Source: Gemmatimonas sp.
Lineage (GTDB): Bacteria > Gemmatimonadota > Gemmatimonadetes > Gemmatimonadales > Gemmatimonadaceae
Length of the DNA stretch: 64,000 nt
Assembly (NCBI GenBank): GCA_031414535.1
Contig: JANNVQ010000014.1
Location: 192,001 to 256,000 of the forward strand
Direction of reading: 5' to 3'
The position numbers and the translations under genes were made by a program. This document shows positions 5,941 through 55,871 of the stretch, piece by piece. Numbering within the stretch: the first letter of the stretch is position 1; each line of letters opens with the position of its first letter. Below the pieces are notes generated by a model that had not been told where the DNA came from, ran no database searches, and saw only the letters and a list, made by a program, of their open reading frames with translations.

Positions 5941-5995
5941 GTAGTTCACTGCGTTAGTGGACCGCCGTCAAGATTTCGACTTCCCGAGTTGCGTA

Positions 5996-10633: not shown

Positions 10634-10646
10634 GCGGATCTATTGA

Positions 10647-33025: not shown

Positions 33026-33148
33026 TGTGGCGCGAGTGGTAGTCATCGGGTGCAGCGACAATCTATCGTCTGTTTACCACGATGTGCCGACCAATGCTTG
33101 CGGGGGACCCGCGCTCCTGCAAGGTTCCGCGCAACCTCTGAGGATCCA

Positions 33149-36644: not shown

Positions 36645-39490
36645 CGCGTCACCCGCAGGCCCACGCGCCATAGCACGCCAGGTGCGCGGCCATCCACCTT
36701 CTCACCGAACCCAGGATTCACCACGTAGGGAAGCGTAGTCACGCCGGTACCGGGGTTCACCGTCACAGAGCCCGTCGCATCAACCAACAACAGCGCCGCA
36801 TCTACCGGTGCGGTGTTGACGGCGAGCAGGTCCACGGCGTCCAGCACCAGATCCACGCGCCTCCCACCGATGTTCGCCACGCGGAACGCGGCGCGAACAT
36901 CCACGCTCTGCGCAAGCTCGCCGCGGCAGGCATTGCGCGCGGCAAACACACCGGACTTCAAGCAAGAATACTTGGCCAGTTGGGCGTCCATCCCCGGCAA
37001 TGCCGCATCCACGAACGCCGCGTCGTTGGTCCAATCGCCGTCGCCGTTGGCATCAACACCGCCGCGGAAGCCAGGCGTGAATGGAAGCCCCGAGCGCAGG
37101 CGATACAGACCGCCAATGCTGAACCAATCACTCAGACGCCACTCCAGCGCGACCATGGCACGGTGGGGTACATCAAGATCACTGCGGCCATCCGCCCAAT
37201 CGCGGCCGGCCAAACCATCAGGGAACGACGACTGCACGCGCCCAAGCTGCGGGAGATTGTCGTTCGTTTGGCTGTGTGTGTAGAATGCCGACAAGCTCAG
37301 GCCCGTCTCGCGCACGCGCTCCACGCCCACCGTGAGGCCCCAGTACTCGCTGCGGCCATCGTTCTCGAGCAGGTTCACGGCATCGAAGTCGGCGAAGCGT
37401 CGGTTGGACTGCGGCGTGACGACGAGCGCCGTACCGACCTGCTGCAGACTGCCAAACAGCGGCCGACCATCTTGATCTTCACCCGCCGCGAAGGCCGGCA
37501 GGTTCAGGTCGCGGCGGCGGCTCAATCCATCGGTCACGCGATACACACCAGATACCGACGCCCTCCAGTATCCGAGCGCGCGCGTGAGACCGAGCGAGAG
37601 GCGCTCGGTGCGCGTGCCACCGAACTGCGGCGACAGCATCGTGAGCGTCTGGCCCACCACTGGGGCCTGGCTCAGGCTGGGCACGGCATCCGTCGGCAGC
37701 GTGCCCACGCCGTACCGCACGCGGGCCGCACGGTCCAGCGCGAGTGCCTCGGCCATATCGCGCACGTCGGGCAGATCGCGGAAGGTGCCAGCGCCGCCCT
37801 CAAGGACCCACGCGGCCTTCTCGCCGAGCTCCCAGCGGAAGCCCAAGCGCGGCGACACCGCAGAGGTCCGCGGCGACACATCGGTGTTGTCGAGCCCGCT
37901 GAGGGCCAACCACTCTGCGTTCTCCTCGATGCGCGACACTGGCACGCCAAAGCTTTCCATCCGCAGGCCCATCGTCAGCTCTAGGCCCGACGCGAGTTGC
38001 CAATCGTCCTGCAGGATGAACGCCGTCTCGCGCAGTCGCAGCACGGCCCCTGCATCGGCGCTCTCGACGCCGCGCCACGCGGCGTTGGCCACGGGCAGCA
38101 AGCTCGGCGCTGTGCCAAACACATACTGCCCGTCACTGTCGCGCACGTACTCGGATTCAGCCCGCTGCGAGGAGGCAAGCACGCCCATCTTCAGCCGGTG
38201 GCGGCCGGCATCCATGTGCAGCAGCGCCGTCAGTCTCGGCGTGGCGCGCAACTCGCGGTGTGGCGTGCCCAGCGCGCCACCAAAGCGGGCGATGTCCGTG
38301 GTTGCGTACTCGCGTGCAAAGCCGCCCGCGCTGCCCTCGGTCCGGTTCACGTCCATCCCAAAGCGCCACTCGGCGGCCACGCGGTTCGAGAGGCGCGCCA
38401 ACACGTTCACGCTGCCCTGCCCCGCGATGCCGCTGTAGTCCGATCCGTAGTAGGAGGGAAAACCTGCGCGCTCGCCGTACCCGGTTGAGGTAAAGCGTCC
38501 GCCGCTCGCCTGCAGGCCAATCGCCAAGCGCTCGCTGCCGCGCCAATCAATGCGTCCAAACGCCGAGGCACGCTCGTCGGCGCGAGAATCCACGTTTATC
38601 GATTCGCTCCAGAAGTCGCGCTCGTTGCGCTGATAGTCGAACCCGACGATGCCCTGCGCGGTGTCGCCTTGCAGCGGGCCAGAGAGCAGGTAGCTGCCGC
38701 CGAGCGCGGCGGTGCCGCCTTCCGCGCCGACGACACTGCCCACGCGGCTGCCTCCTTGACGCGTCGAGGCGCGCACACCGACGCCTGTACCGCCGAGCTC
38801 AACGTCATAGCCCATCCCACCGACCGAAGCGGACGAGACCGCGCGCAGGGGCAGCGCGAGCCCAGCAGCATCGGCACCGCTGCCGGCCTGAGCCGCCGCG
38901 CCAGACGAACGGGCGCCATCAACGAGCATCGAAGTCATCCGCCACGGCAAACCTTCCACGCCGTACGCATCCGCGCCCACCGAGAACGCCGCAACGTCAC
39001 CACCGATGCGACGGGCTCCAGGAAGGTCGGCGTAGCCACGATCAAGCAACCACTGCCCGGGAGCGATGATGGCGCCGCGTGCTACGACGGTGTCTACGGT
39101 ACTCACCGGCGGAGTGGCCGGACGCAGCGTTGCCGCCAGGCGGACGGCCGCGCCCGCGACGACGCGCACGTCCAAGTGCACCACCGGACGGAAACCCACT
39201 TCCTCGACGGTCACGTCGTAGCGGCCACTGGGCAAAGCGTCAAAACGAAAGCGCCCGTCGTGCGACGTCAGGGTCCACTGTGTCGCTCCACCCTGACGGG
39301 ACACCACGCGCACTTCGGCCTCACCTAACGGTCGGCCATCGAGCGCGCGCACCTGCCCCTCGAATCGTCCCACGGCAAGACTCTGCGCTGGCAGCGCGAG
39401 TGGCGCGAACCAGGGCAAAAGCGTGAGAGTGGCGAGCCTAAGGCCGCGCGCAAGAACGTTCAAAACCTGCGGATGCTCGGATGGCGACAC
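36641..39490 (-). CDS. TonB-dependent receptor with N-terminal carboxypeptidase-regulatory-like domain
   Basis: Signal peptide, GRFRFDALPSGRYDVT, LQDDWQL...LTMGLR, SPRLGFRW, C-terminal beta strand VGLRV. Confidence 0.8.
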   Translation of the reverse strand: MSPSEHPQVLNVLARGLRLATLTLLPWFAPLALPAQSLAVGRFEGQVRALDGRPLGEAEVRVVSRQGGATQWTLTSHDGRFRFDALPSGRYDVTVEEVGFRPVVHLDVRVVAGAAVRLAATLRPATPPVSTVDTVVARGAIIAPGQWLLDRGYADLPGARRIGGDVAAFSVGADAYGVEGLPWRMTSMLVDGARSSGAAAQAGSGADAAGLALPLRAVSSASVGGMGYDVELGGTGVGVRASTRQGGSRVGSVVGAEGGTAALGGSYLLSGPLQGDTAQGIVGFDYQRNERDFWSESINVDSRADERASAFGRIDWRGSERLAIGLQASGGRFTSTGYGERAGFPSYYGSDYSGIAGQGSVNVLARLSNRVAAEWRFGMDVNRTEGSAGGFAREYATTDIARFGGALGTPHRELRATPRLTALLHMDAGRHRLKMGVLASSQRAESEYVRDSDGQYVFGTAPSLLPVANAAWRGVESADAGAVLRLRETAFILQDDWQLASGLELTMGLRMESFGVPVSRIEENAEWLALSGLDNTDVSPRTSAVSPRLGFRWELGEKAAWVLEGGAGTFRDLPDVRDMAEALALDRAARVRYGVGTLPTDAVPSLSQAPVVGQTLTMLSPQFGGTRTERLSLGLTRALGYWRASVSGVYRVTDGLSRRRDLNLPAFAAGEDQDGRPLFGSLQQVGTALVVTPQSNRRFADFDAVNLLENDGRSEYWGLTVGVERVRETGLSLSAFYTHSQTNDNLPQLGRVQSSFPDGLAGRDWADGRSDLDVPHRAMVALEWRLSDWFSIGGLYRLRSGLPFTPGFRGGVDANGDGDWTNDAAFVDAALPGMDAQLAKYSCLKSGVFAARNACRGELAQSVDVRAAFRVANIGGRRVDLVLDAVDLLAVNTAPVDAALLLVDATGSVTVNPGTGVTTLPYVVNPGFGEKVDGRAPGVLWRVGLRVTR

Positions 39491-39626
39491 GATGGCGAGA
39501 TGAGGACGGATCGAGAGGTACCGGCTCCAGTGCAGGAAACATACCGGCCAACAGACCTCTGTGTCATCCTGAAATCGCAGGAGCCGCCCACTGGCGATGC
39601 CTCCAAATCGGCACTAGCCTCCCCGT

Positions 39627-39926
39627 ATGCTCCCCCTTCCCTCCGCCACGGTGGTCTTCCAGCGCATTGATGACGGCGCCGTGCTCTTCGCGCCCGCCAC
39701 GGAGATCTACTTCGGCCTCAACGAAGTCGGCGCGCGCGTCTGGGAGTTGCTACCCCCCAAGAGCGACTCGCTCGACCAGCTTTGCGGCACGCTCGCTGCG
39801 GCGTACCCTGAGGTGCCCGCGACTGAGCTGAGGACAGACGTCGAGGAACTGCTCGCGCAACTCCTTCAGGAGGGACTCGTCACGCCGCCAAGCGGCGGGG
39901 CGTCTGATGGCCCGTCTGCGATCTAA
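39627..39926 (+). CDS. PqqD-family RiPP recognition element (lasso B1)
   Basis: AVLF...YFGLNEVGARVWELL...DVEELLAQLLQEGLV. Confidence 0.92.
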   Translation: MLPLPSATVVFQRIDDGAVLFAPATEIYFGLNEVGARVWELLPPKSDSLDQLCGTLAAAYPEVPATELRTDVEELLAQLLQEGLVTPPSGGASDGPSAI

Positions 39927-40356
39927 GATCGCGGACCGCCTCGCTGCACAGTTCGCGCTCCTGCGCGCCCGTCGGCTTCTGGCCACTGCGCCCATCGGCG
40001 CACTCACCACACGCCGAGTTGGAACGGCCCGAGTCGCAGACAGCGAGATTCAAGAGCCACCCCGCGCTGCACCTGAAGCGCAACTGCGCGCCGCGGCCTT
40101 GGGGGACGCGGTGCAATGGACCTCGACCCACGGACTGTTTCGTCCGTTTTGCCTCGTACAGGCGCTCGCACTGCAGGAACTCCTCTCCAAAGCGGGCATT
40201 CACGACAGTGAAATTCGCGTCGGGGTCCGGCGCGAGGGTAACTCGCTAAAAGCCCACGCTTGGGTGCGCTGGAACGGACAAGTCCTCGGCGACGACCCCA
40301 AGCACGTCAGCGAGTTCACCGAAGTGGACGACATTAGCGTCCTCGGTCTGCGATGA
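39907..40356 (+). CDS. Lasso peptide leader peptidase B2 (transglutaminase-like)
   Basis: CLVQAL, IRVGV, AHAWV and downstream D form a Cys-His-Asp triad. Confidence 0.92.
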   Translation: MARLRSKIADRLAAQFALLRARRLLATAPIGALTTRRVGTARVADSEIQEPPRAAPEAQLRAAALGDAVQWTSTHGLFRPFCLVQALALQELLSKAGIHDSEIRVGVRREGNSLKAHAWVRWNGQVLGDDPKHVSEFTEVDDISVLGLR

Positions 40357-40375
40357 TCACGCGGCAGCTCTCCTC

Positions 40376-42109
40376 ATGACCCGCATTTTCGTCCGTGCAG
40401 GCAGAGATACTCGGCCCGACGCTCCAGCAGACGCGGAGGCCTTGGGCTGGTGCGTGGTCGCAGACGCGACGCTGTACTACCAGACTGACTTGCGGTCGCG
40501 CATCGGCGGCACGGCAGGAAGTTCTGCCGAGCTCATCGCTCAAGCCATCGCGAAGGACTCACAACGTGCCCTCGACTGGCTCGAGGGTGATTTTGCGTTT
40601 GTCGCGTGGAAGCAAGACAGCGGCGAGATCATCGCCGCACGTGACTTCTCCGGCAAGCGTCCGCTCTTTTACGCCTCCGCGCCAGACGGTCTACTACTGG
40701 CAAGCGACGTCAGGGCACTACTCGCTGACCCAGCGGTCGACCGACGCATTGACCTCGCCCGGGTTGCCTCAGTGGCGGCCGGACTCTGGGCCCACGGTAG
40801 CGCCACGGGATACCAGGGTATTCACGAGCTCCCGGCCGGCTCCGTGTTGCGCTGGCGGCCCGGCAGCGCAGCGAGCATCACGCCGCACTGGAAGACACCC
40901 GAGCACATCGAAACGCGCCGCCAGCCACTCGACGAGGCCGCCGCAGAGCTGCGCGTCCTCCTCGATGCAGCTGTCCGCGAACGCCTCGCACCGAACGGGC
41001 GCACGGCAGTTTCGTTGAGCGGCGGATGGGACTCTACCGCCGTGTACGGAACCGCCAAAGCGCTCGGCGCGGACGTACACGGGGTAAGCGTCAGCTACCC
41101 TGAGGGCGATCCGGGCCGCGAAGACGAATTCATTCGCGAGGTCACGGCATTCTGGAAGACTTCGCCAGACTTTCTTGACGTTGACGACATCCCGCTCGCC
41201 AGTGATTGGAACGCTGAAGCCGTAGTGCGGCCGCTACCATTTGCACACGTGTATGAGCACTGGAACCGAGCCATCGCTACGCGTGCACGCGCCTCGGGAG
41301 CCACGGTTCTGCTCGACGGAGTCGGTGGCGACCAGCTGTTTCAGTGTGGCGACATCTTCCTCGCGGATTTGCTACGCGGCGGCCAATGGCTCGAGGCCGT
41401 ACATCAAGTGCGGCGACCAGACCGCACTCACGACTGGGCGCGTTTGAAGACTTGGGGCGTTGAGCCGCTGCTACCCGCGTGGTGGCGAGCACGGCGAGCG
41501 CGCCAGCAGAACCGCTTGTTCACTCAAGACTATCTCGAGCGCCTGCCGCCGCGATGGTTTCGGCACAGCTTTCTCCGCGAACATCAGCTCCTTGAACGTG
41601 AGCGCGCGGCACGGCCGCTGCGCCGCACGAGTTCTTTCGTGATGGCTGAAGCGCAGGCCTACATCGAGTTCGCGTACTTTCCCCGCGTGTTCGCGCTACT
41701 CAGCGGATTCGTGGCGGATGCCGGGCTAGAACTTCGCTCGCCCTTGCTCGATCAACGTCTGGTGCGGTTTGCGCTCCAGCGTCCGTGGAGCGACCGGGTG
41801 GATGGCGCTGAGACCAAGAACTTGCTCCGTCGCGCCATGCGCGGACGCCTGCCCGACAGCGTCCTCGCGCCGCGCCCACATCGCACTGGCACAACAAACG
41901 GCTATTTTCTACGCAGGCTTCGCGCGGACGCTTGGCCCGTGGCCCGCACACAGTTCAGTACGCTCCGCCTCGGCGAACTCGGGATCGTGGACCCACACGA
42001 ACTCGAGCGTGCGTGGCAGCACCTCCTCGAGCATGACGACGGCGAGCTCGCCGCACGGTTGTTCTTCACGTTCGCCACTGAACTCTGGCTTCGCTCACAT
42101 CATCCGTGA
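40376..42109 (+). CDS. Lasso peptide cyclase (asparagine-synthetase-like C protein)
   Basis: GDFAF, RDFSGKRPLFY, SLSGGWDST, GVGGDQLF, RSPLLD; no N-terminal Cys; follows B1/B2. Confidence 0.9.
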   Translation: MTRIFVRAGRDTRPDAPADAEALGWCVVADATLYYQTDLRSRIGGTAGSSAELIAQAIAKDSQRALDWLEGDFAFVAWKQDSGEIIAARDFSGKRPLFYASAPDGLLLASDVRALLADPAVDRRIDLARVASVAAGLWAHGSATGYQGIHELPAGSVLRWRPGSAASITPHWKTPEHIETRRQPLDEAAAELRVLLDAAVRERLAPNGRTAVSLSGGWDSTAVYGTAKALGADVHGVSVSYPEGDPGREDEFIREVTAFWKTSPDFLDVDDIPLASDWNAEAVVRPLPFAHVYEHWNRAIATRARASGATVLLDGVGGDQLFQCGDIFLADLLRGGQWLEAVHQVRRPDRTHDWARLKTWGVEPLLPAWWRARRARQQNRLFTQDYLERLPPRWFRHSFLREHQLLERERAARPLRRTSSFVMAEAQAYIEFAYFPRVFALLSGFVADAGLELRSPLLDQRLVRFALQRPWSDRVDGAETKNLLRRAMRGRLPDSVLAPRPHRTGTTNGYFLRRLRADAWPVARTQFSTLRLGELGIVDPHELERAWQHLLEHDDGELAARLFFTFATELWLRSHHP

Positions 42110-43041
42110 CCTCGCGTTATCTCGCCTTCGGCAGTCTGATGGAATCCGACATCGCCTTCCCCGACCTCGCGCTGGGTGGCGAGGGCGATGTACGCTGGCG
42201 AGTGTCGCACGTCGAGGCGCTCGCGCCGATGCACGAGCCGTGCGAACTTGGCCGCGAGACAATCTACGATGCCGTGGCCGCAACGCTCTACGCGCATCGT
42301 GACGGCCGTCGCATCGTGGTGGATGACACCGGCAGCTTCGACCTGCTGGCCGACGGCAGAATCCTCGTGGCTCCACTCGCCACGGCATCGGAAGCCTTCA
42401 TCAGGGCGCACATCCTTGGCCGCGTCCTTGCCACGGCTCTGCACACAGATGGCTGGTTGCCCTTGCACGCGAGCGCCGTGCTCACACGCGAGGGCGTGGT
42501 AGCGTTTCTTGGACCCAAGGGGATGGGAAAGTCCTCCTTGGCCGCGGCGATGGTCGAGGCAGGCGCACAGCTTGTCACGGATGACACGCTGCCCTGCCAA
42601 GCCAGCACGCCCCCCCGCGCTTGGCCAGGCATTCAGGCCTTGCGTGTACGAGACGATGTGCGCGAGGCCCTCCACCTACAGAACGGTAATCCGCTCGACG
42701 TCGACGCCCGACGCTTTTTGGTGTCGCTGGGCGCCGAGCGCCGCTCCCATAAGCCTGAGCCGCTGGCTGCTTTGTTTTTACTTGCGCCCGCCGAAGATGA
42801 ATTGCGTGCAGAGGCCGCCGTGCGCACGCCATTCGCACCCGTGCTTGGCGCGGCCGCCATCACCGCGCACGTGAAGTCCGGCGCAATGTTCGGCCCTGCC
42901 GCCGCTCCCGCGATGCTCGCACGCGCCGCGCAGATGGTGCACCTCGTGCCGGTGAATCAACTGTCCATCGTGCGCGACCTCGCGCGACTTCCCCAAGTCG
43001 CACAGACGGTCCTCGATTGGTACGGGGGTCCGCCGCGGTGA
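42106..43041 (+). CDS. HPr-kinase-like lasso peptide kinase (PadeK/ThcoK-type)
   Basis: LHASAV, P-loop GPKGMGKS, LVTDD. Confidence 0.85.
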   Translation: MTSRYLAFGSLMESDIAFPDLALGGEGDVRWRVSHVEALAPMHEPCELGRETIYDAVAATLYAHRDGRRIVVDDTGSFDLLADGRILVAPLATASEAFIRAHILGRVLATALHTDGWLPLHASAVLTREGVVAFLGPKGMGKSSLAAAMVEAGAQLVTDDTLPCQASTPPRAWPGIQALRVRDDVREALHLQNGNPLDVDARRFLVSLGAERRSHKPEPLAALFLLAPAEDELRAEAAVRTPFAPVLGAAAITAHVKSGAMFGPAAAPAMLARAAQMVHLVPVNQLSIVRDLARLPQVAQTVLDWYGGPPR

Positions 43042-43925
43042 TTGTCCAAGTGGACGGCATCGGCAAATCTTTTGCCGTGACGCCAGGCTGGGCCGCGCTC
43101 GTGCGAGCGCGAGCGGAGCCACGCCGTGTACTCGATGCGGTCAGCTTCTCCGTGAAGGAAGGCGAGATCTTCGGCTTGCTCGGCCCCAATGGCGCCGGCA
43201 AAACCACACTGTTCAAGATTCTCGCAACCTTGTTGGCTTCGGACGAAGGTGAGGCGCACATCGGTGGCTTCTCGGTGAGCGACGACGCGGCAAGTGCGCG
43301 AGCCTTGATTGCGCCGGTGCTGGCGAATGAGCGCTCGCTCTACTGGCGATTGTCCGCGTACGAGAACCTGCGGCTGTACGCCGTGCTCCAAGGTTTGGCG
43401 GCGCATCAGGTGGATGCGGAGATCACGCGCGTGCTCGCGGCCACTGGGCTCAGCGATACCCCGCCTGCAATGGTTGGCACTTTTTCGTCGGGCATGCGCC
43501 AGCGACTGCTTATTGCGCGCGCGCTCCTAGGACGTCCACGCGTGTTGTTACTCGACGAACCCACGCGTAGTCTCGACCCCATCTCGGCGCGCGACTTCCG
43601 TCGCTTCCTCCGTGATTCAGTAGTCCGCGCGGAAGGCTGCACAGTACTGCTCGCCACGCACGATGCCGGTGATGCCTGGGAGCTGTGCGATCGCGTGGCC
43701 GTGCTGCATCGCGGTCAACTCCTCGCCGTTGATGAGACCACCAAGCTGCGCGCGCGATTCGGCGGGCCCCAGCATGCCTTGATTGTGAACTCCGCGGAGA
43801 GAGATCACGCTCGAGCACTCTTAGAAGCCGGCGGAGTGAGCGTCATGCAGGAAGCCCCGCACGCCGCATCGCTGGCCGAACTCATTGAGCGGGCCATCGC
43901 CGATGCAGGGGCTCCGCATGCGTAA
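43038..43925 (+). CDS. ABC transporter ATP-binding protein
   Basis: GPNGAGKT, FSSGMRQR, LLLDEP, H-loop. Confidence 0.93.
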   Translation: MIVQVDGIGKSFAVTPGWAALVRARAEPRRVLDAVSFSVKEGEIFGLLGPNGAGKTTLFKILATLLASDEGEAHIGGFSVSDDAASARALIAPVLANERSLYWRLSAYENLRLYAVLQGLAAHQVDAEITRVLAATGLSDTPPAMVGTFSSGMRQRLLIARALLGRPRVLLLDEPTRSLDPISARDFRRFLRDSVVRAEGCTVLLATHDAGDAWELCDRVAVLHRGQLLAVDETTKLRARFGGPQHALIVNSAERDHARALLEAGGVSVMQEAPHAASLAELIERAIADAGAPHA

Positions 43926-44718
43926 AGCGCTCGCCCTCGCACGTGTTGGCTGGTTGAGTGCCACGAGTTATCGCGTGGCCACGTTGCTGCAGTTCGTGGG
44001 AGTACTCGCTACCATCGTGCCGGTGTATTTCGTCTCGCAAGCCATGCAGGAATTGGCTGCCTCGAGCATCCAACGAGAGGGTGGTGCGTACTTCGCGTTC
44101 ATCGTGGTCGGCATCGCGAGTACCTACATCGTCGCTGCGGCGACCACCGCCGTGTCGAGCGCGATTGCATCCAACCTCGGCTCCGGTACCTTCGAGGCCT
44201 TGCTTGGCACCCGCGCTTCTATCGTGTCTATCCTGTTTGGACTCTCGCTCCACGACTTGGCGATGTCGGCATTGCGTGCCCTCGCCTTGTTGGTAGGAGC
44301 AGCCGCGTTCGGCGCCGACATCCATTGGTTGGCACTGGTGAGCGTCCTACCAATCGTGGCGCTGGTAGTAGTTGCGTATGCTGGTGTCGGATTGGTAGCG
44401 GGGGCGCTGGTCCTCGCGTTCCGCACCGCCGGTCCGCTCGTCAGCATTACCATTGCACTCTCGGGATTGCTGGGCGGTGCGTACTACTCCACGACCGTCG
44501 TACCTGGCTGGCTGCATCCACTGACGGAGTTCGTACCGCTGACGCACGGACTGCGCGCCACGCGCGCCGTGTTGCTTGGTGGCGAAGGTCTCGCGACCAC
44601 CTGGCCAGATGTTCTGCGCTTGGCGAGTAACGCTCTGTTGCTCGTGACTGCGGGTGTGATTGCCTTCGCATTCGCCCTGCGTCGTGCGCGCGGCAACGGC
44701 TCGCTCTCTCAGTACTGA
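43918..44718 (+). CDS. ABC-2 type transporter permease
   Basis: About six TMs, GTFE.LL, P.WL...VPLTH. Confidence 0.88.
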   Translation: MRKALALARVGWLSATSYRVATLLQFVGVLATIVPVYFVSQAMQELAASSIQREGGAYFAFIVVGIASTYIVAAATTAVSSAIASNLGSGTFEALLGTRASIVSILFGLSLHDLAMSALRALALLVGAAAFGADIHWLALVSVLPIVALVVVAYAGVGLVAGALVLAFRTAGPLVSITIALSGLLGGAYYSTTVVPGWLHPLTEFVPLTHGLRATRAVLLGGEGLATTWPDVLRLASNALLLVTAGVIAFAFALRRARGNGSLSQY

Positions 44719-45902
44719 TGAGCACGCTTTCGCCGTCGCCCGAGCTACGCTTCGTTTTCCGCGCCGCCGATCCTCGCTGCGAAGCGCAGGAGCTGCTCGG
44801 CATCGCCGCGCAGATTCAGGATTGGCAGCGAGTCGCGCGCTTGGCAGAATCGGAAGGTGCGACGGCCGTGCTCTGGCGTATGCTGCGGCCAGTTGCCGCA
44901 CAACTGCCCGCGGAGTTCGTGATTTTCCTGCAGGCACGCACGATGCTCGCGGATTTTCGCATGCAGCGCCTCGCGCAGCGCGCGCAGGAAACCGTGGCTG
45001 CGCTTCGGGCTGCCGGCATTGACGTGCTGCTCCTCAAGGGAGCCGCCGTAGGCGCGCTTTGCGACCCCACGTTTCGTCTGCGACCGATGACGGACGTTGA
45101 TTTGTTGATTGCCGAAGCGGACGCGGAGCGAGCCAAGGCCTGCGTGCTGGGTTTGGATTGGATGGAAATGCCGGAGCCGCGTCTGCGCGAGCTGTTAGTG
45201 GGGCATCAACATCTGCCGCCGTTTGTGGATCCCACGCTCGAGGGCCTGCGGCTCGAACTGCACACGCGTCTACTGCCAGCGGATAGTTCGTTTGCATTGG
45301 TGGCGTCTGATCTCTGGCAACACGCGAACCTGGCACCGCCGCAGTTTGCCGGCGCAAAGGTCCCGGATCTCGCAAGGCTGGCCGTGCACACCGCCGTGCA
45401 TTTCGCATGGCAACACGAGATGCGCTTCGGTCCCTGGCGAACGTTTCGCTCGTTTGCCCTGCTCACGCAGCACGAGAGCTGGGATTGGCAGGCCTTCGTT
45501 GCGATTGGCCGCGACGCGCGGGCCAGCACCTCCTGCTACTGGACGCTGCGGATGGCTCGTACACTCAGTGGTGTCGACGTCCCCCGCGCGGTGTTGGCAG
45601 CGCTCGCGGCACCATCGCCTGAGTTTGTGCGTCGCATCTTGGACCGCCACTTCACGGCCGTCTCCGATCCGCTCGAGCGTCCGCCGTCACCGTCGGATCG
45701 TCTGGCAAGGCTGTTGTGGCGCATGGCCCTGCGCCCGCGATGGAGCGGACACCGCACGGTGAGTCGGTTCGATCCCGAACGACGTTGGGAGCGTGCGTTC
45801 AGTGAGACGGCTGAGCCGGCGAGCATGTCGCGCGTCAGGCGCCACGTCGGAGTTCGTGGAGACTGGTGGGCTTTTCTCACGCGTACGATTGCGGGGCGAT
45901 AG
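44718..45902 (+). CDS. Nucleotidyltransferase family protein (lasso-cluster type)
   Basis: LLKGAA, RPMTDVDLL, LELH; last gene of the lasso operon. Confidence 0.85.
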   Translation: MSTLSPSPELRFVFRAADPRCEAQELLGIAAQIQDWQRVARLAESEGATAVLWRMLRPVAAQLPAEFVIFLQARTMLADFRMQRLAQRAQETVAALRAAGIDVLLLKGAAVGALCDPTFRLRPMTDVDLLIAEADAERAKACVLGLDWMEMPEPRLRELLVGHQHLPPFVDPTLEGLRLELHTRLLPADSSFALVASDLWQHANLAPPQFAGAKVPDLARLAVHTAVHFAWQHEMRFGPWRTFRSFALLTQHESWDWQAFVAIGRDARASTSCYWTLRMARTLSGVDVPRAVLAALAAPSPEFVRRILDRHFTAVSDPLERPPSPSDRLARLLWRMALRPRWSGHRTVSRFDPERRWERAFSETAEPASMSRVRRHVGVRGDWWAFLTRTIAGR

Positions 45903-45913
45903 CGGCGCGAACT

Positions 45914-48262
45914 TTACGGACGGTCTACAAGACGTTCGAGTCGCTCAAGACGTGCCTTCAGGTCGTTCACTTCCGAGCGCAGTGTAGCGTTCTCGGCCTT
46001 CAAGGCATCAGAACGCAGAATGAGTTGCTGGACGGCAAAGAGATTGATGCCGTCAATGTCCACGAGCGTGATGGTGCGATCGCTGGTGCCGAGTCCGAAC
46101 GCCGCGCGAAAGTCCTGCGCGGTAGGTCCGACGTGACGCACGCTCGCGTTTTCCGTGGTGTAGCTCCACTCCTCGATTGGCATCGTGCGGATGCTTGAGA
46201 GCACCTGCTCGCCGTCGAGTGCAGTGAAGCTCTGCTTGCGATTGCGGTCGGAGAGGGAGGTCCATGAGCCGCTGCCTGGCGTGAGTTCGACACCGCTCGT
46301 CATGGCGCTGTTGGAATAGAGCGTATAGCCACCAGCTGCGCGCACGACGAACTGATTGTCTGCAGCGGCCGTCACGTTGGTGGTGGTCGAGTTGTCGCCG
46401 AAGACCAGTGCACCCTCTCGTCCGTTTGTTGAAGCCGCTGATCCGAGGGCGACGGATTGAATGCCGCTCGCGATTACATCCACGCCGATGGCCACCGCGC
46501 CAAGAGCAGATGCCTGAGGACCGAGCCCGATTGCGACGGATCCGACACCGGATGACTGGGAGGAGTTGCCGAGGGCGATGCTGCCGGTGTTAGATGCGGT
46601 GGTGAGGTATCCCACGGAGAAGGCAGCCAGTCCGCTCGCGACCGTAGTGCTTCCCATCGCAATCGAGTTTTCTCCGGTGGCCTGCGTTGAGAAGCCGAGC
46701 GAAACTGCCGACGCGGCCGTGGCGCGAGCGAGACTGCCAATCGCGAGGCTCGCCTCGCCACTGGCTAGCGTGTTGTTGCCGAACGCGGTGGAGTAGAGGC
46801 CGATGTTGGCATCGTTCCACTCGCTTAGAGTTCCAGCGTTATCGAGGCGTCCAGCGCGAATCGAGGCCTTGCGCGGATACCACAGGAAGCGCGAGCCCGT
46901 ACCAGCCGGCGCCAAATCGCCTGAGTTGATCGCGCCGCCCGTGGCCAAAATCGGGTTCGTGCCGATGGTGAGGCCGAGCGCTGAAATACGACCGGCCGCG
47001 AACGCACCATCCGCATCACGCTGCACGATTGCATCCGCGGTGTTCAGCGCCGTACCTGAGGCGTTTGTGCCGGCGGGCCCTTGTGGGCCGACGTCTCCCT
47101 GGAGTCCCTGAATTCCCTGAATCCCTTGAATTCCCTGCGGGCCAGCAGGGCCGGTTTCGCCCGTGGCTCCGGAATCACCTTGAACACCTTGAAGGCCCTG
47201 AAGGCCCTGCGGTCCCTGAGGACCTGCAGGGCCGGTGGCACCCGCTGCACCTGCAGGACCAGCGTCTCCTTGGATTCCTTGTGGGCCCTGAGGGCCGGTG
47301 GCACCGGTCAGGCCTTGAAGACCCTGAGCGCCCTGCGGGCCGGCTGGGCCCGTCGCGCCCGCGGCTCCGGAATCGCCTTGAACCCCCTGTAGGCCCTGTA
47401 GTCCTTGCGGACCCACAGGACCTGCCGGCCCTGTGGCACCTACGGCACCAGCAGGACCAGCATCTCCTTGGGCACCTTGTGGGCCCTGAGGGCCGGTAGC
47501 ACCGGTCAGGCCTTGAAGACCCTGAGCGCCCTGCGGGCCAGTCGCACCGGCAGCGCCAGCGGGACCAGCGTCGCCTTGAAGACCCTGAAGACCCTGGGGA
47601 CCAATAGCGCCAGCCGGCCCAGTCAGACCCTGCGGCCCGGCAGGACCAACCGCGCCGGCAGCTCCAGCTGGACCAACATCCCCTTGAAGACCCTGGAGAC
47701 CCTGCGGTCCCTGCGGGCCAGCGGCACCAGTCGCGCCGGCCGTGCCCGTGGGTCCGGTTAAACCCTGCGGCCCGGCAGGGCCAGCAGGACCAACTTCACC
47801 CTGCAATCCCTGCGCACCCGGAACGCCTGGAACACCCTGCGGTCCCTGCGGTCCCTGAGGTCCCTGAGGTCCAATCGCGCCCGCCGCGCCAGCCACACCC
47901 GCTGCACCAGCCACACCCTGCGGACCCGTTGCACCCTGCGCACCAGCCGGACCCTGCGGCCCCACCGGACCCTCAGACGTCCACGTAAACAGCACGTGCG
48001 TCGTCGCCACACAAGTCGTCGGCAGCCCCGCCGCGCCGACTCGATACACCGTGCCCGTCGTCGGCACGAAACACGCACGCAGAGTATCCGCCACGATCAA
48101 GGCGCCGGAGAACGCTGCACCGGCTCCTGCCATCGCAAACGAGGAGGAGGCGCTCAGGGAAACACCGAGCACCGCGGCAATTCCAAGCGCCGTGCCACGA
48201 AAGGTTGTGCGAAGTCGAGTAGACAACTGAAAGCTTCCTGCGAAAAGGGAGTTGAGCGACAT
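45914..48262 (-). CDS. Secreted collagen-like fibre protein with YadA-head-like repeats and C-terminal S74 intramolecular chaperone
   Basis: Signal peptide, Cys-pair N-domain, about 100 Gly-X-Y triplets, A.G..S.A.G repeats, SDRNRK cleavage motif, HVGPTAQDF, coiled-coil end. Confidence 0.88.
47069..47971 (-). repeat. Collagen Gly-X-Y coding repeat (about 100 triplets) with higher-order duplicated blocks
   Basis: Recurrent [10 protein letters not shown](VQG)D(A/S)G and [19 protein letters not shown] blocks, visible at DNA level. Confidence 0.9.
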
Positions 48263-48296
48263 CTCTTGGGAAACACGGCGCCACGGATCGCGAACT

Positions 48297-48689
48297 TCAG
48301 CCGTTCACAATCCAGGTCCGAGCGAACTGCAACGTGAGACGGAGCACTTCTACTTCGGGCGCCTTATCCGCGCTCGCGCCGCCAGCCAAAGTGTTGAAGG
48401 CCTGCACAGTCGCATTGAATGCCGTGCACGCAGCGGCGCGATCTGCCACGGCTACCGCCGACTCAAGCGCCGCGAGTTGGACGTCCACTGCGGGCGGCGC
48501 GGCCAGCGTCGGGAGCACACGGTCGCGCGCATCCTCTAACGCCGGACGTAGCGCCGCAGCGTTCGTGACCGTGTGCTGGAGAGGGGTGCCCAGTGCGAGA
48601 GCCGTACAATCAATTTGCGGCTCCGTTGGCGCTTCCGTACAGGCGGCGAGCCCGGCAAGCAACGCGAGGCCGAGCAGTCGACTTTTCAC
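48297..48689 (-). CDS. Small helical lipoprotein of unknown function
   Basis: [17 protein letters not shown] lipobox; directly upstream of the collagen gene. Confidence 0.7.
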
Positions 48690-48839
48690 TTAGATTTTTC
48701 TGTGATGGATTGCGGGAGAGAACCGTCTTGCTGTCCAGTATGCAATCTCCGTGCTGGAACCTAGCCGAGCCGTATCGGCCAGCACACCACGGGCTTGGGC
48801 AATCGGCAACCCATTCCTGGGCGCCAACGGGCCTCGACT

Positions 48840-49009
48840 TGTTGATGCGTGTGCACATAGTTGTTGCGAGAAAGCAACAGTCCCGTGCGTGATGTGGGTC
48901 ACGCGGGGGATCCTGGAGCCGTCACTGTCGCTTAAACTATTGTACAGCAAAGCTTTAAATATCACCGCTATAATTTCTCATCCGTGCTTGAGTCGGCATC
49001 AGTATTGCA
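48840..49009 (+). promoter_or_regulatory. Sigma54-dependent promoter of the lasso precursor with tandem enhancer boxes and IHF-like site
   Basis: TGTTGA-TGCGTG-TGCACA at 48840-48857; perfect TGTTGC-GAGAAA-GCAACA at 48862-48879; TAA-ACTA-TTG at 48933; CGGCATCAGTATTGCA (GG-N10-GC) at 48994-49009. Confidence 0.65.
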
Positions 49010-49057
49010 CTAGTCGTGTCCTGACTGGCCCCCTACTCAGAATTCCAGAGGATGTTG

Positions 49058-49234
49058 ATGTATCAGAAGCCCCAGCTCCAGAAGTTCGGTACCTTCCGCG
49101 AGCTCACACTCCTCGGTCTCAATAGCTCCACCGATGGCGCCGTCATTTTCGGCATCGGATCCCCAGGTTGCTCCACCACCATCGGGAAATGGACTTGGGA
49201 AATTGGCTGCCCTTCCGGGCCGCGCTCCTCCTGA
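49058..49234 (+). CDS. Lasso peptide precursor (58 aa)
   Basis: MYQKPQLQKFGTFRELTL matches the YxxPxLxxxGxxxxxT leader; core LGLNSSTD... has Asp8; GAGGA RBS; terminator follows. Confidence 0.9.
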   Translation: MYQKPQLQKFGTFRELTLLGLNSSTDGAVIFGIGSPGCSTTIGKWTWEIGCPSGPRSS

Positions 49235-49272
49235 ACCAGCGGCACATCGCGTAAACCTCAGTTTGCGCCACC

Positions 49273-49311
49273 ACGAGCCCCGAGCCTCTCGCTCCGGGCT
49301 CGTTTTTCTTT
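49273..49311 (+). terminator. Rho-independent terminator after the lasso precursor
   Basis: ACGAGCCC-c-GAGC/ctctc/GCTC-c-GGGCTCGT hairpin followed by TTTTCTTT. Confidence 0.8.
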
Positions 49312-49373
49312 CCCCGCCGCGACAGCATACTTCCCCAGTCGCGTTGCGCCCATAATTCCCCCGCTCCACCACG

Positions 49374-50303
49374 ATGCCGCTCTACTCGGCCTACGGCACA
49401 CGGCTCGAATCTGCCATCGAGTTTCCAGAGCTACCGCTCGCCAGCCGCGGACCGGCACGTTGGCGCTTCCGCATTGACGCCGAGCTTCCGGCAATGCGGG
49501 ATCCCGAAGAGCGCGGGTCGGAACTCATCCACGGCGACGTCTACGCGAGACTCTTCGCGCACCGCCGTGGCCTGCGTGTCTGCGTGGACGACACCGGCGA
49601 CTTCGATATCGCGCCCAACGGCAACATCGTCGCTACCACGCGCCCAGACGCGTGGGACGACTTCGTCCGGAATCATCTATTGGGCCGCGTCCTCGCCGTC
49701 GCGATGTTCGAAGCCGGCTGGCTACCGCTGCACGCGTCCGCCGTCGATACACCCGAGGGCGTCATCGCGCTCCTCGGACCCAACTCCGTAGGAAAATCTG
49801 CGCTCGCGATTGCACTCACTAATGCCGGCGCCACGCCAGTCGCTGACGATACGCTTCCCGTGGAATCGGGCACGCCACCCTGCGCTTGGCCGGGGTTACC
49901 CAACGTCCGCATTCGTGAAGACGTACGGGCTGCCCTAGACTTGCCCCGCAGCGGACTAGACACGCACGAAGGCAAGACCATCCTCGCGCCGGCGCCTAAT
50001 CACCATCCGAGCATGTCGCCTCGCCCGCTTGCTGGCATCTATTTGCTCGCGCCCAACGAGAACCTCGCGCGTAAAGCCGCCGTGGTGCGCACGCCCTTCG
50101 CACCCGTGCTCGCAGCACCGGCCATCGTTGCGCACGTTCGCGCCGGCGCGATGCTCGGCCGCGGCGCAGTCGCCACCATACTCCAGAGAGTGTCGCCAGT
50201 CGTGAGTATGGTGCCCGTGCACCAACTCTCGGTCTCCCGCGATCTGTCGCGGCTGGAGGACGCCGCCCGAGAGATCATGAGTTGGTACGCGGTCACCACC
50301 TAG
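49374..50303 (+). CDS. Second HPr-kinase-like lasso kinase (paralog of 42106..43041)
   Basis: LHASAV, GPNSVGKS, VADD; collinear similarity to the first kinase (VRTPFAPVL, VPV.QLS..RDL.RL). Confidence 0.83.
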   Translation: MPLYSAYGTRLESAIEFPELPLASRGPARWRFRIDAELPAMRDPEERGSELIHGDVYARLFAHRRGLRVCVDDTGDFDIAPNGNIVATTRPDAWDDFVRNHLLGRVLAVAMFEAGWLPLHASAVDTPEGVIALLGPNSVGKSALAIALTNAGATPVADDTLPVESGTPPCAWPGLPNVRIREDVRAALDLPRSGLDTHEGKTILAPAPNHHPSMSPRPLAGIYLLAPNENLARKAAVVRTPFAPVLAAPAIVAHVRAGAMLGRGAVATILQRVSPVVSMVPVHQLSVSRDLSRLEDAAREIMSWYAVTT

Positions 50304-50325
50304 TAGCCCTAGCACATTCATATAG

Positions 50326-50970
50326 ATGCCAGTCCCGCTTCTCGCCGCTCTCTCCGCCGCCGGATGGCTCACGGTCGGCACGCAGTTCATCCTCTCCATC
50401 CGGACCAGCCTTCTGAACGGCGGCTCGGCTTGGCACGGCATCGTGTCGTACTTCGGGTACTTCACCCTGCTCACCAACATCCTCTGTGCCGCCATCCTCA
50501 CGGCGCACGCCTTGGGTGGCAACAGCAGCCTTCAGCGGTTCCTGCGGCGGCCGGGCGTGACCACCACAGCCGCGACCTCCATCATCGTGGTCGGAGTGGT
50601 CTACCATCTCTTGCTCGCGGCACAGTGGAATCCCACGGGGATTGATCTCGTGGTGGACACCATGCTCCACACGGTGATGCCCATCCTCTTCGTGCTCGCG
50701 TGGACGCGTCTGGTACCGCGCGGCGCGGTTGCACTGGGCCACACACCGATGTGGAGCAGCTACATCTTGGCCTACGCGGTCTACATCCTCATCCGCGGCG
50801 CCATCATTGGCGTCTACCCGTATCCATTCATTGATGTCACCACCCTCGGCTACAGCATTGCCCTTCGCAATGCGGCCCTCTTGGGCGTAGCTTTTGTTGC
50901 GTTATCCGCTGGCATGGTCGGAGTGAATCGCGTGCTCGGCGCCCCCCGCAAAGAAACTTTGGAGAGCTGA
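50326..50970 (+). CDS. Pr6Pr/FAR-17a-like membrane protein
   Basis: YFTLLTN, VYHLLL, LH.VMP, YPYPFID. Confidence 0.8.
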   Translation: MPVPLLAALSAAGWLTVGTQFILSIRTSLLNGGSAWHGIVSYFGYFTLLTNILCAAILTAHALGGNSSLQRFLRRPGVTTTAATSIIVVGVVYHLLLAAQWNPTGIDLVVDTMLHTVMPILFVLAWTRLVPRGAVALGHTPMWSSYILAYAVYILIRGAIIGVYPYPFIDVTTLGYSIALRNAALLGVAFVALSAGMVGVNRVLGAPRKETLES

Positions 50971-52415
50971 TGTCGCTCGTCCCCGCAGCGTTGTTCCTGC
51001 AGGCTCAAACGGCCGCCGAGCGCCTCGCGGCGGCCCGCAATGGCCTCGACATTCCACTGGCCGAGCGCGCGATGGGACTCGTGGGCATCGCCGTCCTCAT
51101 CGGCATCGCGGTGCTGATCTCGTACGACCGCAAGAAGATTGACTGGCGCTTGGTGTTCACGGGATTCGGACTGCAAGCAGTGTTCGGCATCGTGGTGTTA
51201 AAGACGGAGATTGGGCGCACCGTCTTCCAGAAAATTGGCAATCTCATCACCTCGCTGCTCGGCTTTCAGGAGCAGGGCGCGCGTTTCGTCTTCGGCAACT
51301 TGGTGCAGTCCTCCGTACCGGTGACGAGCGCTGACGGCGTGCCAATCGAAGGCGTCTCGATGGTGGCCAACACCGGCGCGTACTTCGCCTTCAACGTGCT
51401 GCCCACCATCATCTTCTTCTCGGCGTTGATGTCGGTGCTGTACTACCTCGGCTTCATGCAGATGATTGTGAAGTCGCTGGCCTACGTGATGCAGAAGACG
51501 CTCAAGACCTCCGGTCCCGAGACGTTAAGTGCGTCCGGCAACATCTTCCTTGGCCAGACCGAAGCGCCCTTGCTCATCAAGCCCTTCGTCGGCTCAATGT
51601 CGCGCTCCGAGTTGAACACGGTGATGGTCGGCGGTTTCGCGACGGTCGCCGGCGGTGTGCTCGCCGCCTACGTCGGCATGCTGTCCGGCATGTTCCCAGG
51701 CATCGCCGCGCACTTGCTCGCCGCTAGCGTGATGAATGCGCCAGCTGGCCTCGCACTCTCGAAGATCATCCTGCCGGAGACTCCCGAGGCTCGCGCAAAG
51801 GCCACTGGCCTGCGCGAAGCAGAAGCGGCCATGAAGGCCGCCGAGCCGGTGCCGGCACGCAAGCGCCTCTTCCAGATCGGCGGGCACAGCGGCGAGAGCG
51901 GCATGATTGAAGCCGCCGCCAATGGCGCCGCACAGGGTGTGCAACTCGCCATCAACGTCGCCGCGATGCTGATGGCATTTGTCGCGCTCGTCGCGCTCAT
52001 CAACGCGATGCTCGGCTGGGGCGGCGGCGTGATTGGCGTGGAAGGCCTCTCACTGCAGAGCATCCTCGGCACGTTGCTACGTCCCCTCGCCTGGGTGATG
52101 GGTGTGCCGTGGCAGGACACCTCATATGTGGGTTCGCTGATTGGATTGAAGGCCACGCTGAACGAATTCGTGGCTTACGCGCAGTTCGGCGCGGACTTGG
52201 GTGCGGGCCAGGTGCTGGAGCCGCGTTCGGCGATCATCCTCACGTACGCGCTGTTAGGCTTCGCGAACTTCAGCTCGATTGCCATTCAGATCGGCGGCAT
52301 CGGTGGATTGGCGCCAGAGCGGCGTGGTGAAATTGCGCAGCTGGGCGTGCGCGCGATGATTGGCGGAAACTTGGCGGCGTTCATCTCGGCGTGTATTGCG
52401 GGGATGCTCGTGTAG
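50970..52415 (+). CDS. Concentrative nucleoside transporter (NupC/CNT family)
   Basis: FNVLPTIIFFS, NIFLGQTEAP, GFATVAGG, NEFVAY, GFANFSSIAIQIGG. Confidence 0.93.
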   Translation: MSLVPAALFLQAQTAAERLAAARNGLDIPLAERAMGLVGIAVLIGIAVLISYDRKKIDWRLVFTGFGLQAVFGIVVLKTEIGRTVFQKIGNLITSLLGFQEQGARFVFGNLVQSSVPVTSADGVPIEGVSMVANTGAYFAFNVLPTIIFFSALMSVLYYLGFMQMIVKSLAYVMQKTLKTSGPETLSASGNIFLGQTEAPLLIKPFVGSMSRSELNTVMVGGFATVAGGVLAAYVGMLSGMFPGIAAHLLAASVMNAPAGLALSKIILPETPEARAKATGLREAEAAMKAAEPVPARKRLFQIGGHSGESGMIEAAANGAAQGVQLAINVAAMLMAFVALVALINAMLGWGGGVIGVEGLSLQSILGTLLRPLAWVMGVPWQDTSYVGSLIGLKATLNEFVAYAQFGADLGAGQVLEPRSAIILTYALLGFANFSSIAIQIGGIGGLAPERRGEIAQLGVRAMIGGNLAAFISACIAGMLV

Positions 52416-52438
52416 GACGGATGACGGAAGACGGATGA
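52415..52438 (+). repeat. Heptamer tandem repeat GACGGA(T/A) x3
   Basis: GGACGGATGACGGAAGACGGATGA directly after the nupC-like stop; same unit as at 58350. Confidence 0.7.
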
Positions 52439-52446
52439 TGAAAGGC

Positions 52447-52489
52447 GCGCGGGGGACAGGCCAAGTGTCTGTCCCCCGTGCTATTTTTT
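52447..52489 (+). terminator. Rho-independent terminator after the nucleoside transporter
   Basis: GCGCGGGGGACAGGC/caagt/GTCTGTCCCCCGTGC stem followed by TATTTTTT. Confidence 0.82.
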
Positions 52490-52493
52490 GCCG

Positions 52494-55400: not shown

Positions 55401-55871
55401 CTCGTCGCCGAGGCCTACGGCTGGCCCTGGCCCATGGAGCGCGAAGAGATCCTCGAGCGCCTCGTCGCCCTTCACGACGAACGAGTCGAAGAAGAAAAGC
55501 GCGGCATCATCCGCTGGCTTCGCCCCGAATATCAGATTCCGCGCTTCGCGCCTGAGCAGGCCGAGGCCATCCTCGCGCTCGACGAGTCGGAGAAGCCCGC
55601 CAAGAAGCGCAGCAAGAAGTCGAAGGCCGCGGATTCTTCGGATGAAGCGCCAAAGCCGACCGCCACGCCCTGGCCGGCCACCGCTGTTGAGCAGATTTCC
55701 GCGATCAGTGCCCTCATCGCGCAGCAGTCACGCTCGGCGGCCGAGGTCGCGGCGGCGTTCGCAGGGGCACGGACTGAGCTCGTGACGCGACACCTCGACA
55801 CGCTGGCGCTCATGGGCGAGGTCACCCTTGGACCCGACGCGCGGTATCAGGCCTCGAGAAAGGCCGCGTAG
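52494..55871 (+). pseudogene. MmeI-like type IIL/IIG fused restriction-modification enzyme interrupted by one in-frame TAG (54171-54173)
   Basis: N-terminal D...EAK nuclease motif, FNGHFF, IFGTL, YTPR, LDPACGSGNFL, then GNPPYLGS*RMRGALGDGY continuing in frame into GLITTNSI, TRD and FDPFPFP...LDKLVAEAYGW. Confidence 0.85.

Follow-up and report, generated by a model that had tools for sequence, protein, structure and literature searches.

How a lasso peptide might be made when its only precursor gene lies outside the processing operon, and whether such a peptide would be released or fixed to the cell surface, are questions raised by a 64,000-nucleotide stretch of a Gemmatimonas sp. genome (contig JANNVQ010000014.1, positions 192,001 to 256,000 of the forward strand; hereafter the window). 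Seven plus-strand genes at 39627-45902 form a tightly coupled operon in the order B1-B2-C-kinase-ABC-ABC-nucleotidyltransferase (NTase), with successive junctions of -20, +19, -4, -25, -41 and -1 nt. The precursor gene is found 3.16 kb downstream of the operon end, past an opposite-strand pair of genes for a collagen-like protein and a lipoprotein, the latter separated from it by a 362-nt spacer, and a second kinase gene comes after the precursor gene. It is probable, in our view, that this is a lasso cluster of the kinase plus nucleotidyltransferase type (pseudomycoidin, paeninodin) that has been split in two and likely still works in trans. By analogy with characterised systems, the product would most likely be a free, exported 40-residue lasso peptide that is phosphorylated and probably hexosylated.

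The two parts are considered to belong together because the genome (3.7 Mb, 58 contigs, ~64% G+C, 98.4% complete) holds one precursor and one B2 protein. The 58-aa precursor is the sole match above cut-off to the lasso leader model NF033521 in the whole genome (27.1 bits in the genome scan), and a profile search of the same 3.7 Mb returned a single B2. All nine lasso genes of the window are intact. An initial annotation, made from the DNA letters, had described a split-B lasso cluster with kinase and NTase tailoring genes, a coupled operon running from B1 to the NTase, a precursor about 3.1 kb past it and beyond an oppositely oriented gene pair, a terminator after this precursor and a second kinase at its side. 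Family matches bear out the type of cluster; every operon gene was found at its place, with junctions between -41 and +19 nt; and the outlying part agrees with the description too, including a hairpin with a T-run (z = -5.6) and a kinase 49% identical to the first.

The precursor ATG is preceded by GAGGA 6 nt upstream. The leader has the pattern YxxPxLx3Gx5Tx, and Y2, P5, G11, T17, G20 and D26 are invariant in an alignment of 13 precursors. The 13 also have in common F13, R14 and L16 in the leader and, besides G20 and D26, G27 and a late Cys in the core, an earlier Cys being nearly invariant. Cleavage is presumed to occur after Thr-x, which would divide the peptide into a leader of 18 aa and a core of 40 aa that carries Leu1, Asp8 (numbering starts right after Thr-x), Cys20 and Cys33 and ends in Ser-Ser. 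Relatives vary at core position 1 (W, L, I, V or other residues) but keep Gly2 and Asp8, and for this reason an 8-residue ring is predicted. The 13 aligned precursors have Ser as their last residue, as do nearly all related precursors examined; two true precursors end in Ser-Arg. With its two tail cysteines the predicted core resembles the tail-bridged lasso peptides. All 27 precursor genes that were folded have a GC hairpin (-22 to -43 kcal/mol) on their 3' side (a shuffle z was calculated for that of the window only), and the hairpins 3' of the orphan precursor of genome G023 and of the precursor of genome G062 are homologous to it.

An alignment of 16 kinases, the two of the window among them, has H121, K142, D159 and D160 in every row, and both window kinases keep all 33 of its invariant columns. 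The His-Lys-Asp-Asp motif is the one named for lasso kinases (PMC9266682), and the D158A/D159A mutant of PsmK, the pseudomycoidin kinase, is reported to be inactive (PMC6993621). In a kinase tree of 40 rows, from which locus L011 (kinase in two pieces) and matches below 250 aa were left out, kinase 1 pairs with the G062 kinase as its sister (support 99/95), and the group made of kinase 1 and the kinases of G062, G023 and G027 has kinase 2 as sister (support 98/88). This position makes kinase 2 a paralogue born within the lineage. Its recent acquisition from a foreign source was considered and ruled out, since it nests inside the genus clade. True orthologues of kinase 2 occur on two metagenome contigs, L068 and L069, where they are 76% identical to it and 50% identical to kinase 1. 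The ratio of nonsynonymous to synonymous substitution (dN/dS) between the window and L068 is 0.17 for kinase 2, 0.11 for the precursor and 0.12 for NucT, the neighbouring nucleoside transporter, values that are rough because dS is near 1. The precursor-kinase 2 module is old, conserved and under purifying selection.

Judging from the protein families, the pathway might proceed as follows. The precursor would be transcribed alone from a sigma-54-type promoter, and either kinase, or the two together, would phosphorylate its C-terminal Ser. Once bound by B1, the precursor would be cut by B2 after the leader Thr-Leu, and C would close the ring between Leu1 and Asp8. The NTase would probably add a hexose to the phosphate. 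Finally, the ABC-2 transporter would export the free peptide, with a probable Cys20-Cys33 bridge in its tail. The monoisotopic masses calculated for the predicted forms are 3974.893 for the core with lactam and disulfide, 4054.859 with a phosphate added, and 4216.912 and 4378.965 with phosphate and one or two hexoses, respectively.

Table 1. Lasso genes of the window, the genes and signals around them, and the matches that identify them (coordinates in the window; scores in bits)
Feature	Position	Strand	Basis
Sigma-54-type motif CGGTAT-N5-CCTGC upstream of the OMP/CarboxypepD_reg/deacetylase operon	39531-39546	-	scores 7/11 against the consensus on its own
B1, PqqD-like leader-recognition protein	39627-39926	+	PF05402 65.5, cut-off 23.4
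B2, transglutaminase-like leader peptidase	39907-40356	+	NF033537 73.6, cut-off 33
C, Asn-synthetase-like lasso cyclase	40376-42109	+	PF00733 124.9, cut-off 21; SGGWDS motif
Kinase 1, HPrK-like	42106-43041	+	PF07475 19.4 (weak), below cut-off 33.3
ABC ATPase, DrrA/NodI-like (start codon uncertain)	43017-43925	+	PF00005 105.6
ABC-2 permease (start codon uncertain)	43885-44718	+	PF01061 45.6
Nucleotidyltransferase ("uncharacterised NTase" family)	44718-45902	+	PF14907 102.4, cut-off 31.2
Collagen-repeat/YadA-head/S74-chaperone protein, 782 aa	45914-48262	-	PF01391, PF05658, PF13884
Lipobox protein, 130 aa, first gene of the lipoprotein-collagen pair	48297-48689	-	no known family
Sigma-54-like motif upstream of the lipoprotein gene	48741-48756	-	-24 reads AG, not GG
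Sigma-54-type -24/-12 motif CGGCAT-CAGTA-TTGCA	48994-49009	+	49 nt upstream of precursor ATG
Lasso precursor, 58 aa	49058-49234 (alternative ATG 49052)	+	NF033521 26.6, cut-off 19
Terminator-like GC hairpin and T-run between precursor and kinase 2	49273-49313	+	z = -5.64
Kinase 2, paralogue of kinase 1	49374-50303	+	PF07475 17.6, below cut-off 33.3

The remaining operon genes are identified by family matches (Table 1). B1 matches the NCBIfam lasso PqqD models below their cut-offs, and B2 also matches PF13471 (68.1 bits, cut-off 26). C sits between B2 and the kinase, as it does in relatives with a 40-56% identical protein, and the ABC ATPase is 57-68% identical to its counterparts in the clusters of relatives. 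The DxD motif of the NTase reads DVD (residues 126-128). This protein, whose gene closes the cluster in most relatives, is putatively PsmN-like, the membership of PsmN in PF14907 being taken from the wording of PMC6993621; a search of its sequence against the PDB gave nothing below E 0.4. An Rfam scan of 38500-52500 gave no match. As regards assembly support, contigs of run X1, which may be the source sample, cover 39000-47269 and 47510-50072 and a contig of sample X2 covers 48124-48992; the X2 contigs listed leave 45300-48124 unbridged, and X3 covers short parts only.

Scanning with the sigma-70 consensus revealed no promoter ahead of either the precursor or B1. The precursor is predicted to be transcribed from a sigma-54-type promoter of its own, and several observations point to this. 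Its upstream motif scores 9/11 against TGGCAC-N5-TTGCW, the best of 18 upstream regions scored in the window; it is one of 11 sites with this score in 128 kb (both strands). In the window, L068, L069 and G023, the spacers between the lipoprotein and precursor genes show little conservation outside two blocks. The first, GGCAT-N5-TTGC at 48995-49008, is kept in all four. The second, TGCAATCT, is invariant in the four aligned spacers and constitutes the -12 part of the element facing the lipoprotein gene, versions of which that bear GG at -24 are found in L068, L069, L041, L044 and L037. The strict motif lies 5' of 16 of 38 precursors, where ~0.4 would be expected from a background of 0.0114 per 220 nt; its distance from the conserved Tyr codon is 52-124 nt for 15 of them and 174 nt for one more. 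Precursors that carry the motif head a transcription unit, and operon-internal precursors have none. The genome encodes one rpoN (205 bits) and seven enhancer-binding proteins (PF00158), none of which is a PrsR-type regulator above cut-off (292-389 bits, cut-off 502.6). Among the papers listed for the literature searched, none dealt with a link between lasso peptides and sigma-54 or RpoN.

The promoter that the initial annotation had assigned to the precursor thus stands as a sigma-54-type element kept in four orthologous spacers and falls as a sigma-70 site. A second claim, that the promoter motif is common to the neighbouring exopolysaccharide (EPS) locus, applies to one operon next to the cluster, which encodes an outer-membrane protein (OMP), a CarboxypepD_reg protein and a deacetylase and whose upstream 16-mer pattern is conserved in 6 of 8 genomes. 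It does not extend to the deeper spacers of the EPS locus, where sigma-54 motif scores are at background. Exact k-mers common to the lasso spacers and 12 other spacers amount to one 11-mer, which is at chance level; degenerate motifs are invisible to this test.

How the precursor came to be apart from its operon can be approached from the layout in relatives. A search with kinase 2 matched 14 of 36 same-genus genomes, and the window proteins were mapped onto the loci retrieved; a search with the single C protein gave 4 loci. All 12 same-genus loci for which DNA upstream of B1 was available (L007, L008, L011, L012, L013, L015, L019, L023, L024, L032, L045 and L049) read precursor-B1-B2-C-kinase-(ABC-ABC)-NTase, with the precursor directly upstream. 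The window is the exception: B1 and a divergent OMP gene are just 136 nt apart and no precursor lies between them. The arrangement in G062, seen on a 2.27-Mb contig, is OMP ... precursor-B1-B2-C-K-ABC-ABC-NTase-NucT-TonB-DHS-LDC; the collagen and lipoprotein genes, a second precursor-kinase pair, Pr6Pr and MmeI-like genes are all absent from it. The ~60 nt that directly precede B1 in the window can be aligned with a stretch 3' of the hairpin that follows the G062 precursor. These sequences fit a deletion, in the lineage of the window, that took away the first precursor along with its promoter and hairpin.

Among other relatives, G023 has a canonical precursor by the OMP gene and also an orphan precursor, 79% identical to that of the window, located between the lipoprotein gene and NucT, i.e., in the position seen in the window, with no kinase. 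In G074 the collagen and lipoprotein genes, both on the minus strand, precede a precursor-B1...NTase cluster. L068 and L069 show the same minus-strand pair followed by a precursor (88% identical), the kinase 2 orthologue, Pr6Pr, NucT and TonB. It would appear that the common ancestor of the lineage had two precursors, one at the operon head and another, accompanied by a kinase, next to the lipoprotein/collagen pair; that G023 retains both; and that the genome of the window lost the first along with its promoter. The idea that the genus has two separate chromosomal sites for the cluster was ruled out, since G062 shows that the OMP and NucT sides flank one locus. No direct or inverted repeats were found flanking the extra module, which thus bears no mark of a mobile element. 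An MmeI-like restriction-modification gene also occurs in this part of the window (52488-55871), as two same-frame ORFs separated by a single TAG at 54171-54173, which immediately follows the methyltransferase motif NPPY; in G062 and in L068 the interval from NucT to TonB lacks a gene of this kind.

The same pairing is met beyond the genus. Of 401 Gemmatimonadota genomes, 84 match the kinase profile at E <= 1e-20, and 56 do so at E <= 1e-50. In other genera the precursor is immediately upstream of the kinase at 13 of 20 loci, mostly in the order B1-B2-C-precursor-K-ABC-ABC-NTase, so that precursor plus kinase is the common unit and the detached pair of the window keeps this pairing. Two further loci show that neither a detached precursor nor a doubled kinase is unique to the window. 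L066 (G098:C5:219000-238999) is a double cluster, C-precursor-NTase-B1-B2-kinase-B1'-precursor'-kinase', whose two precursor cores are very different, one being a Gly/Phe-rich repeat. In G412 (L059, ~17197) the sole detectable precursor is separated from the upstream NTase gene by ~3.2 kb that include a gene on the opposite strand; a sigma-54-type motif of its own accompanies this precursor, but no kinase gene adjoins it. At three loci, L048 (G365), L064 (G328) and L010 (G049), precursor, B1, B2, kinase and NTase are present and there is no C between B2 and the kinase. Such clusters are either decaying or might make linear phosphorylated peptides.

Several points weigh against a cluster that works in trans, and the main weakness is the lack of a promoter-like site before B1. 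On the plus strand, neither a sigma-54-type nor a sigma-70-like site was found in the 136 nt in front of this gene. The sigma-54-type promoter present at the operon head in relatives went with the upstream precursor. Both kinases fall below the Pfam and NCBIfam cut-offs, and C is below those of the curated lasso-cyclase models (NF033535, 173.5/525; NF033561, 133.6/300). The likeness to PsmK, PsmN and the paeninodin kinase PadeK, discussed below, is one of published description and residue positions. To our knowledge, a core of 40 residues is longer than that of any characterised lasso peptide, and threading is for this reason unproven. No RNA runs carrying 48700-50400 were found. Finally, the loss of C in L048, L064 and L010 shows that clusters of this kind do decay.

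The last point leads to an alternative that we regard as unlikely, in which the split is the wreckage of two clusters, the genes from B1 to the NTase are no longer properly expressed, and precursor and kinase 2 are a remnant or serve a role independent of lasso synthesis. The absence of the canonical precursor and its sigma-54-type promoter in front of B1 would be expected in that case, as would the loss of C in some relatives and the kinase-less orphan precursor of G023. The neighbourhood is moreover in flux, as indicated by the extra module and by the in-frame stop in the MmeI-like gene. However, decay is hard to reconcile with nine intact lasso genes, with two kinases that keep every invariant residue and with purifying selection on precursor and kinase 2 between two lineages. 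The precursor also keeps its leader motif, ring Asp and C-terminal Ser, features of no consequence to it unless it is a substrate of B1, B2, C and a kinase, and the genome has no other B2.

The cluster also adjoins genes that suggest a different fate for the peptide. The initial annotation was right in placing a polysaccharide-type locus next door. Upstream of the cluster are three polysaccharide deacetylase genes, GT2 genes, GDSL genes, an AsnB-type amidotransferase gene, a nonribosomal peptide synthetase-polyketide synthase (NRPS-PKS) hybrid and an FkbH protein gene. The nearest deacetylase, at 34797-35648, matches TIGR03006 (XrtA system polysaccharide deacetylase) with 315.1 bits (cut-off 276.2), and the protein encoded by 3920-5644 scores just below this cut-off (269.9 bits). 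No exosortase was detected in the 98.4%-complete genome with TIGR03109 (E <= 1e-5) or PF09721 (E <= 1e-3), the TIGR03109 half of this result being weak because the model is silent in control genomes too. The NRPS-PKS hybrid inside the locus (5957-16400 and 30851-33061, with an FkbH-domain protein) comprises a formyltransferase, an adenylation domain interrupted by a luciferase-like monooxygenase and a PCP, then KS-AT-KR-DH-ACP. Together with FkbH, it suggests an acylated or lipid-linked product instead of plain EPS.

This setting has given rise to the proposal that the NTase activates the phospho-peptide, which then becomes attached to a surface structure, or to a sugar in the polysaccharide encoded next door, instead of being freely released. 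We consider it improbable. In its most explicit form, to which we give as little credence, the precursor, the OMP/deacetylase operon and the lipoprotein-collagen operon would constitute one sigma-54 envelope programme; the NTase would turn the phospho-Ser into a nucleotide-activated donor, and the peptide would be grafted by a phosphodiester onto a surface glycan and not released. If this were true, lasso peptides would be covalent decorations of the cell surface. The proposal is speculative and draws on position and promoter motif, that is, the sigma-54-type motifs on the precursor, the OMP-deacetylase operon and the lipoprotein-collagen pair. It is helped by the unsolved chemistry of PsmN-type enzymes (PMC6993621), of which neither the substrate (precursor or product) nor the mechanism is settled according to PMC8498205.

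The positional argument holds in part. The cluster lies at the edge of a polysaccharide-type locus in most same-genus genomes examined, and borders one in G365, G274, G400, G119, G111 and G057 as well. Its neighbours are deacetylase, CarboxypepD_reg and OMP genes in G032, G019, G021, G023 and G062, the OMP gene alone is visible in G029 and G026, and AsnB, AMP-ligase and GSDH are found in G028, G007 and G015. This same-genus adjacency is synteny by descent, and descent alone would lead one to expect it. Outside the genus, polysaccharide-type neighbours are found at 6 of 21 loci (L048, L051, L055, L056, L060 and L014). Two of these have suggestive arrangements: in L055 a deacetylase gene lies 114 nt before B1 on the same strand, and in L051 the cluster lies between a deacetylase gene and an AsnB-type amidotransferase gene. 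In contrast, the neighbours at the other 15 loci are unrelated, such as ftsZ/ftsA/murC in L053. In L052 (G173) and L066 (G098) the cluster is located between rpsG and fusA in the str operon, in L054 (G279) near rpsG, and in L061 (G330) within a few kb of rpoC. Such locations are curious in that RNA polymerase is the target of several known lasso peptides.

Genome-wide counts, compared by hand and including related genomes that are not independent samples, give a similar picture. A deacetylase (E <= 1e-30) is present in 32 of the 56 genomes with a strong kinase match, and the other 24 have no match. It lies within 12 kb of the kinase in 8 of the 32 (G000, G062, G032, G274, G400, G119, G111 and G217 (unpublished)), on the same contig at 25 kb to 1.3 Mb in 5, and on a different contig in 19. 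Adjacency to a deacetylase is clearly recurrent, being found in two families and far above chance, yet it is not obligatory, and the cluster persists without a deacetylase. The initial annotation would have its proposal refuted if homologous operons in relatives were not linked to EPS genes, and the outcome is mixed: the link is a feature of most same-genus genomes examined that is missing from the majority of outside loci and from the 24 deacetylase-free genomes. Attachment to a glycan is further opposed by the failure to find an exosortase and by the presence of a dedicated ABC-2 exporter in every complete cluster, while the characterised homologous system yields a peptide carrying phosphate and hexose (PMC6993621).

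The gene pair that separates the two parts calls for comment. The collagen-like protein has a signal-like N-terminus. Homologues of the lipobox protein occur in 7 of 55 genus genomes, and collagen-like and lipoprotein genes are paired in 6 of these 7; in the ESM Atlas the best score for the lipobox protein was 0.84, to an unnamed cluster, which is not usable. The lipoprotein gene is divergent from the precursor gene in five sequences (the window, G023, G074, L068 and L069), the G074 lipoprotein being merely 30% identical to that of the window. In the G074 cluster (L045, 17455-19170), genes for an Rce1-like CAAX-protease-family membrane protein and a CpsB/CapC-type phosphatase lie directly 3' of the NTase gene. 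This divergent arrangement and the conserved sigma-54-like elements at both sides of the spacer could be taken to mean that the precursor-kinase 2 module is tied functionally to the lipoprotein/collagen-like fibre, e.g., as a co-regulated signal or accessory factor that uses the lasso enzymes for maturation only, but the chances of this are very slim, since the pair lacks a nearby precursor in G072, G005 and G073, most lasso clusters of the phylum lack the pair, and no biochemical tie joins the proteins.

A split cluster that would make a free peptide in trans leaves known lasso biosynthesis in place; glycan attachment, with its positional and promoter-motif support, would matter if true. No characterised lasso peptide from Gemmatimonadota was found in the literature searched; the one survey found counted lasso clusters in 29 marine genomes (PMC11316326). 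The family is common in the phylum, and its precursors combine unusually long cores with tail cysteines, Ser at the C-terminus and a ring region of the conserved pattern x-G-x5-D-G. The window adds three points that can be tested: a precursor plus kinase mini-module that different lineages have retained at a distance from the processing operon, a single precursor with two diverged kinases, and a predicted sigma-54 promoter on lasso precursor genes.

Among known systems, the closest in gene content is pseudomycoidin (psm) of Bacillus pseudomycoides DSM 12442 (PMC6993621). Like the predicted gene set of the window, it has a split B1/B2, C, an HPrK-family kinase for the C-terminal Ser, an ABC transporter and an "uncharacterised nucleotidyltransferase", PsmN, which is needed for placing one or two hexoses on the phosphate; the peptide with phosphate and hexose is reported from mass spectrometry of producing E. 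coli cells (PMC6993621). Compared by position, PsmK D158/D159 correspond to D159/D160 of kinase 1 and D158/D159 of kinase 2, and PsmN D134/D136 to D126/D128 of the window NTase. The psm cluster belongs to another phylum and has another gene order. The window differs in its two-gene ABC-2 exporter, in its predicted 40-aa core with two tail cysteines, in having two kinases and in its detached precursor with a sigma-54-type promoter. In paeninodin (pade, Paenibacillus dendritiformis) and for the kinases ThcoK and SyanK, the C-terminal Ser of the linear precursor is phosphorylated before processing (PMC9266682). Unlike the window, the pade cluster has one kinase, a precursor inside the cluster and, according to PMC6993621, no nucleotidyltransferase. 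A long-tailed known lasso peptide has a tail beyond ring and loop like that predicted here; it is not tailored by a kinase or NTase, and the predicted core of the window is longer.

The HPr-rel-A/HprK-related kinase systems (TIGR04352, TIGR04353 and TIGR04355) share with the window a PqqD-family chaperone and an HPrK-related kinase, and the C-less B1-B2-kinase-NTase locus L010 (G049) resembles them. The term "HprK-related kinase" was not found in the literature searched. The window proteins are far below the cut-offs of these models (29 and 24 bits/200; 22/35), and the window adds a predicted lasso cyclase and a lasso precursor. The cluster is a rearranged form of those that make the known kinase/nucleotidyltransferase-tailored lasso peptides.

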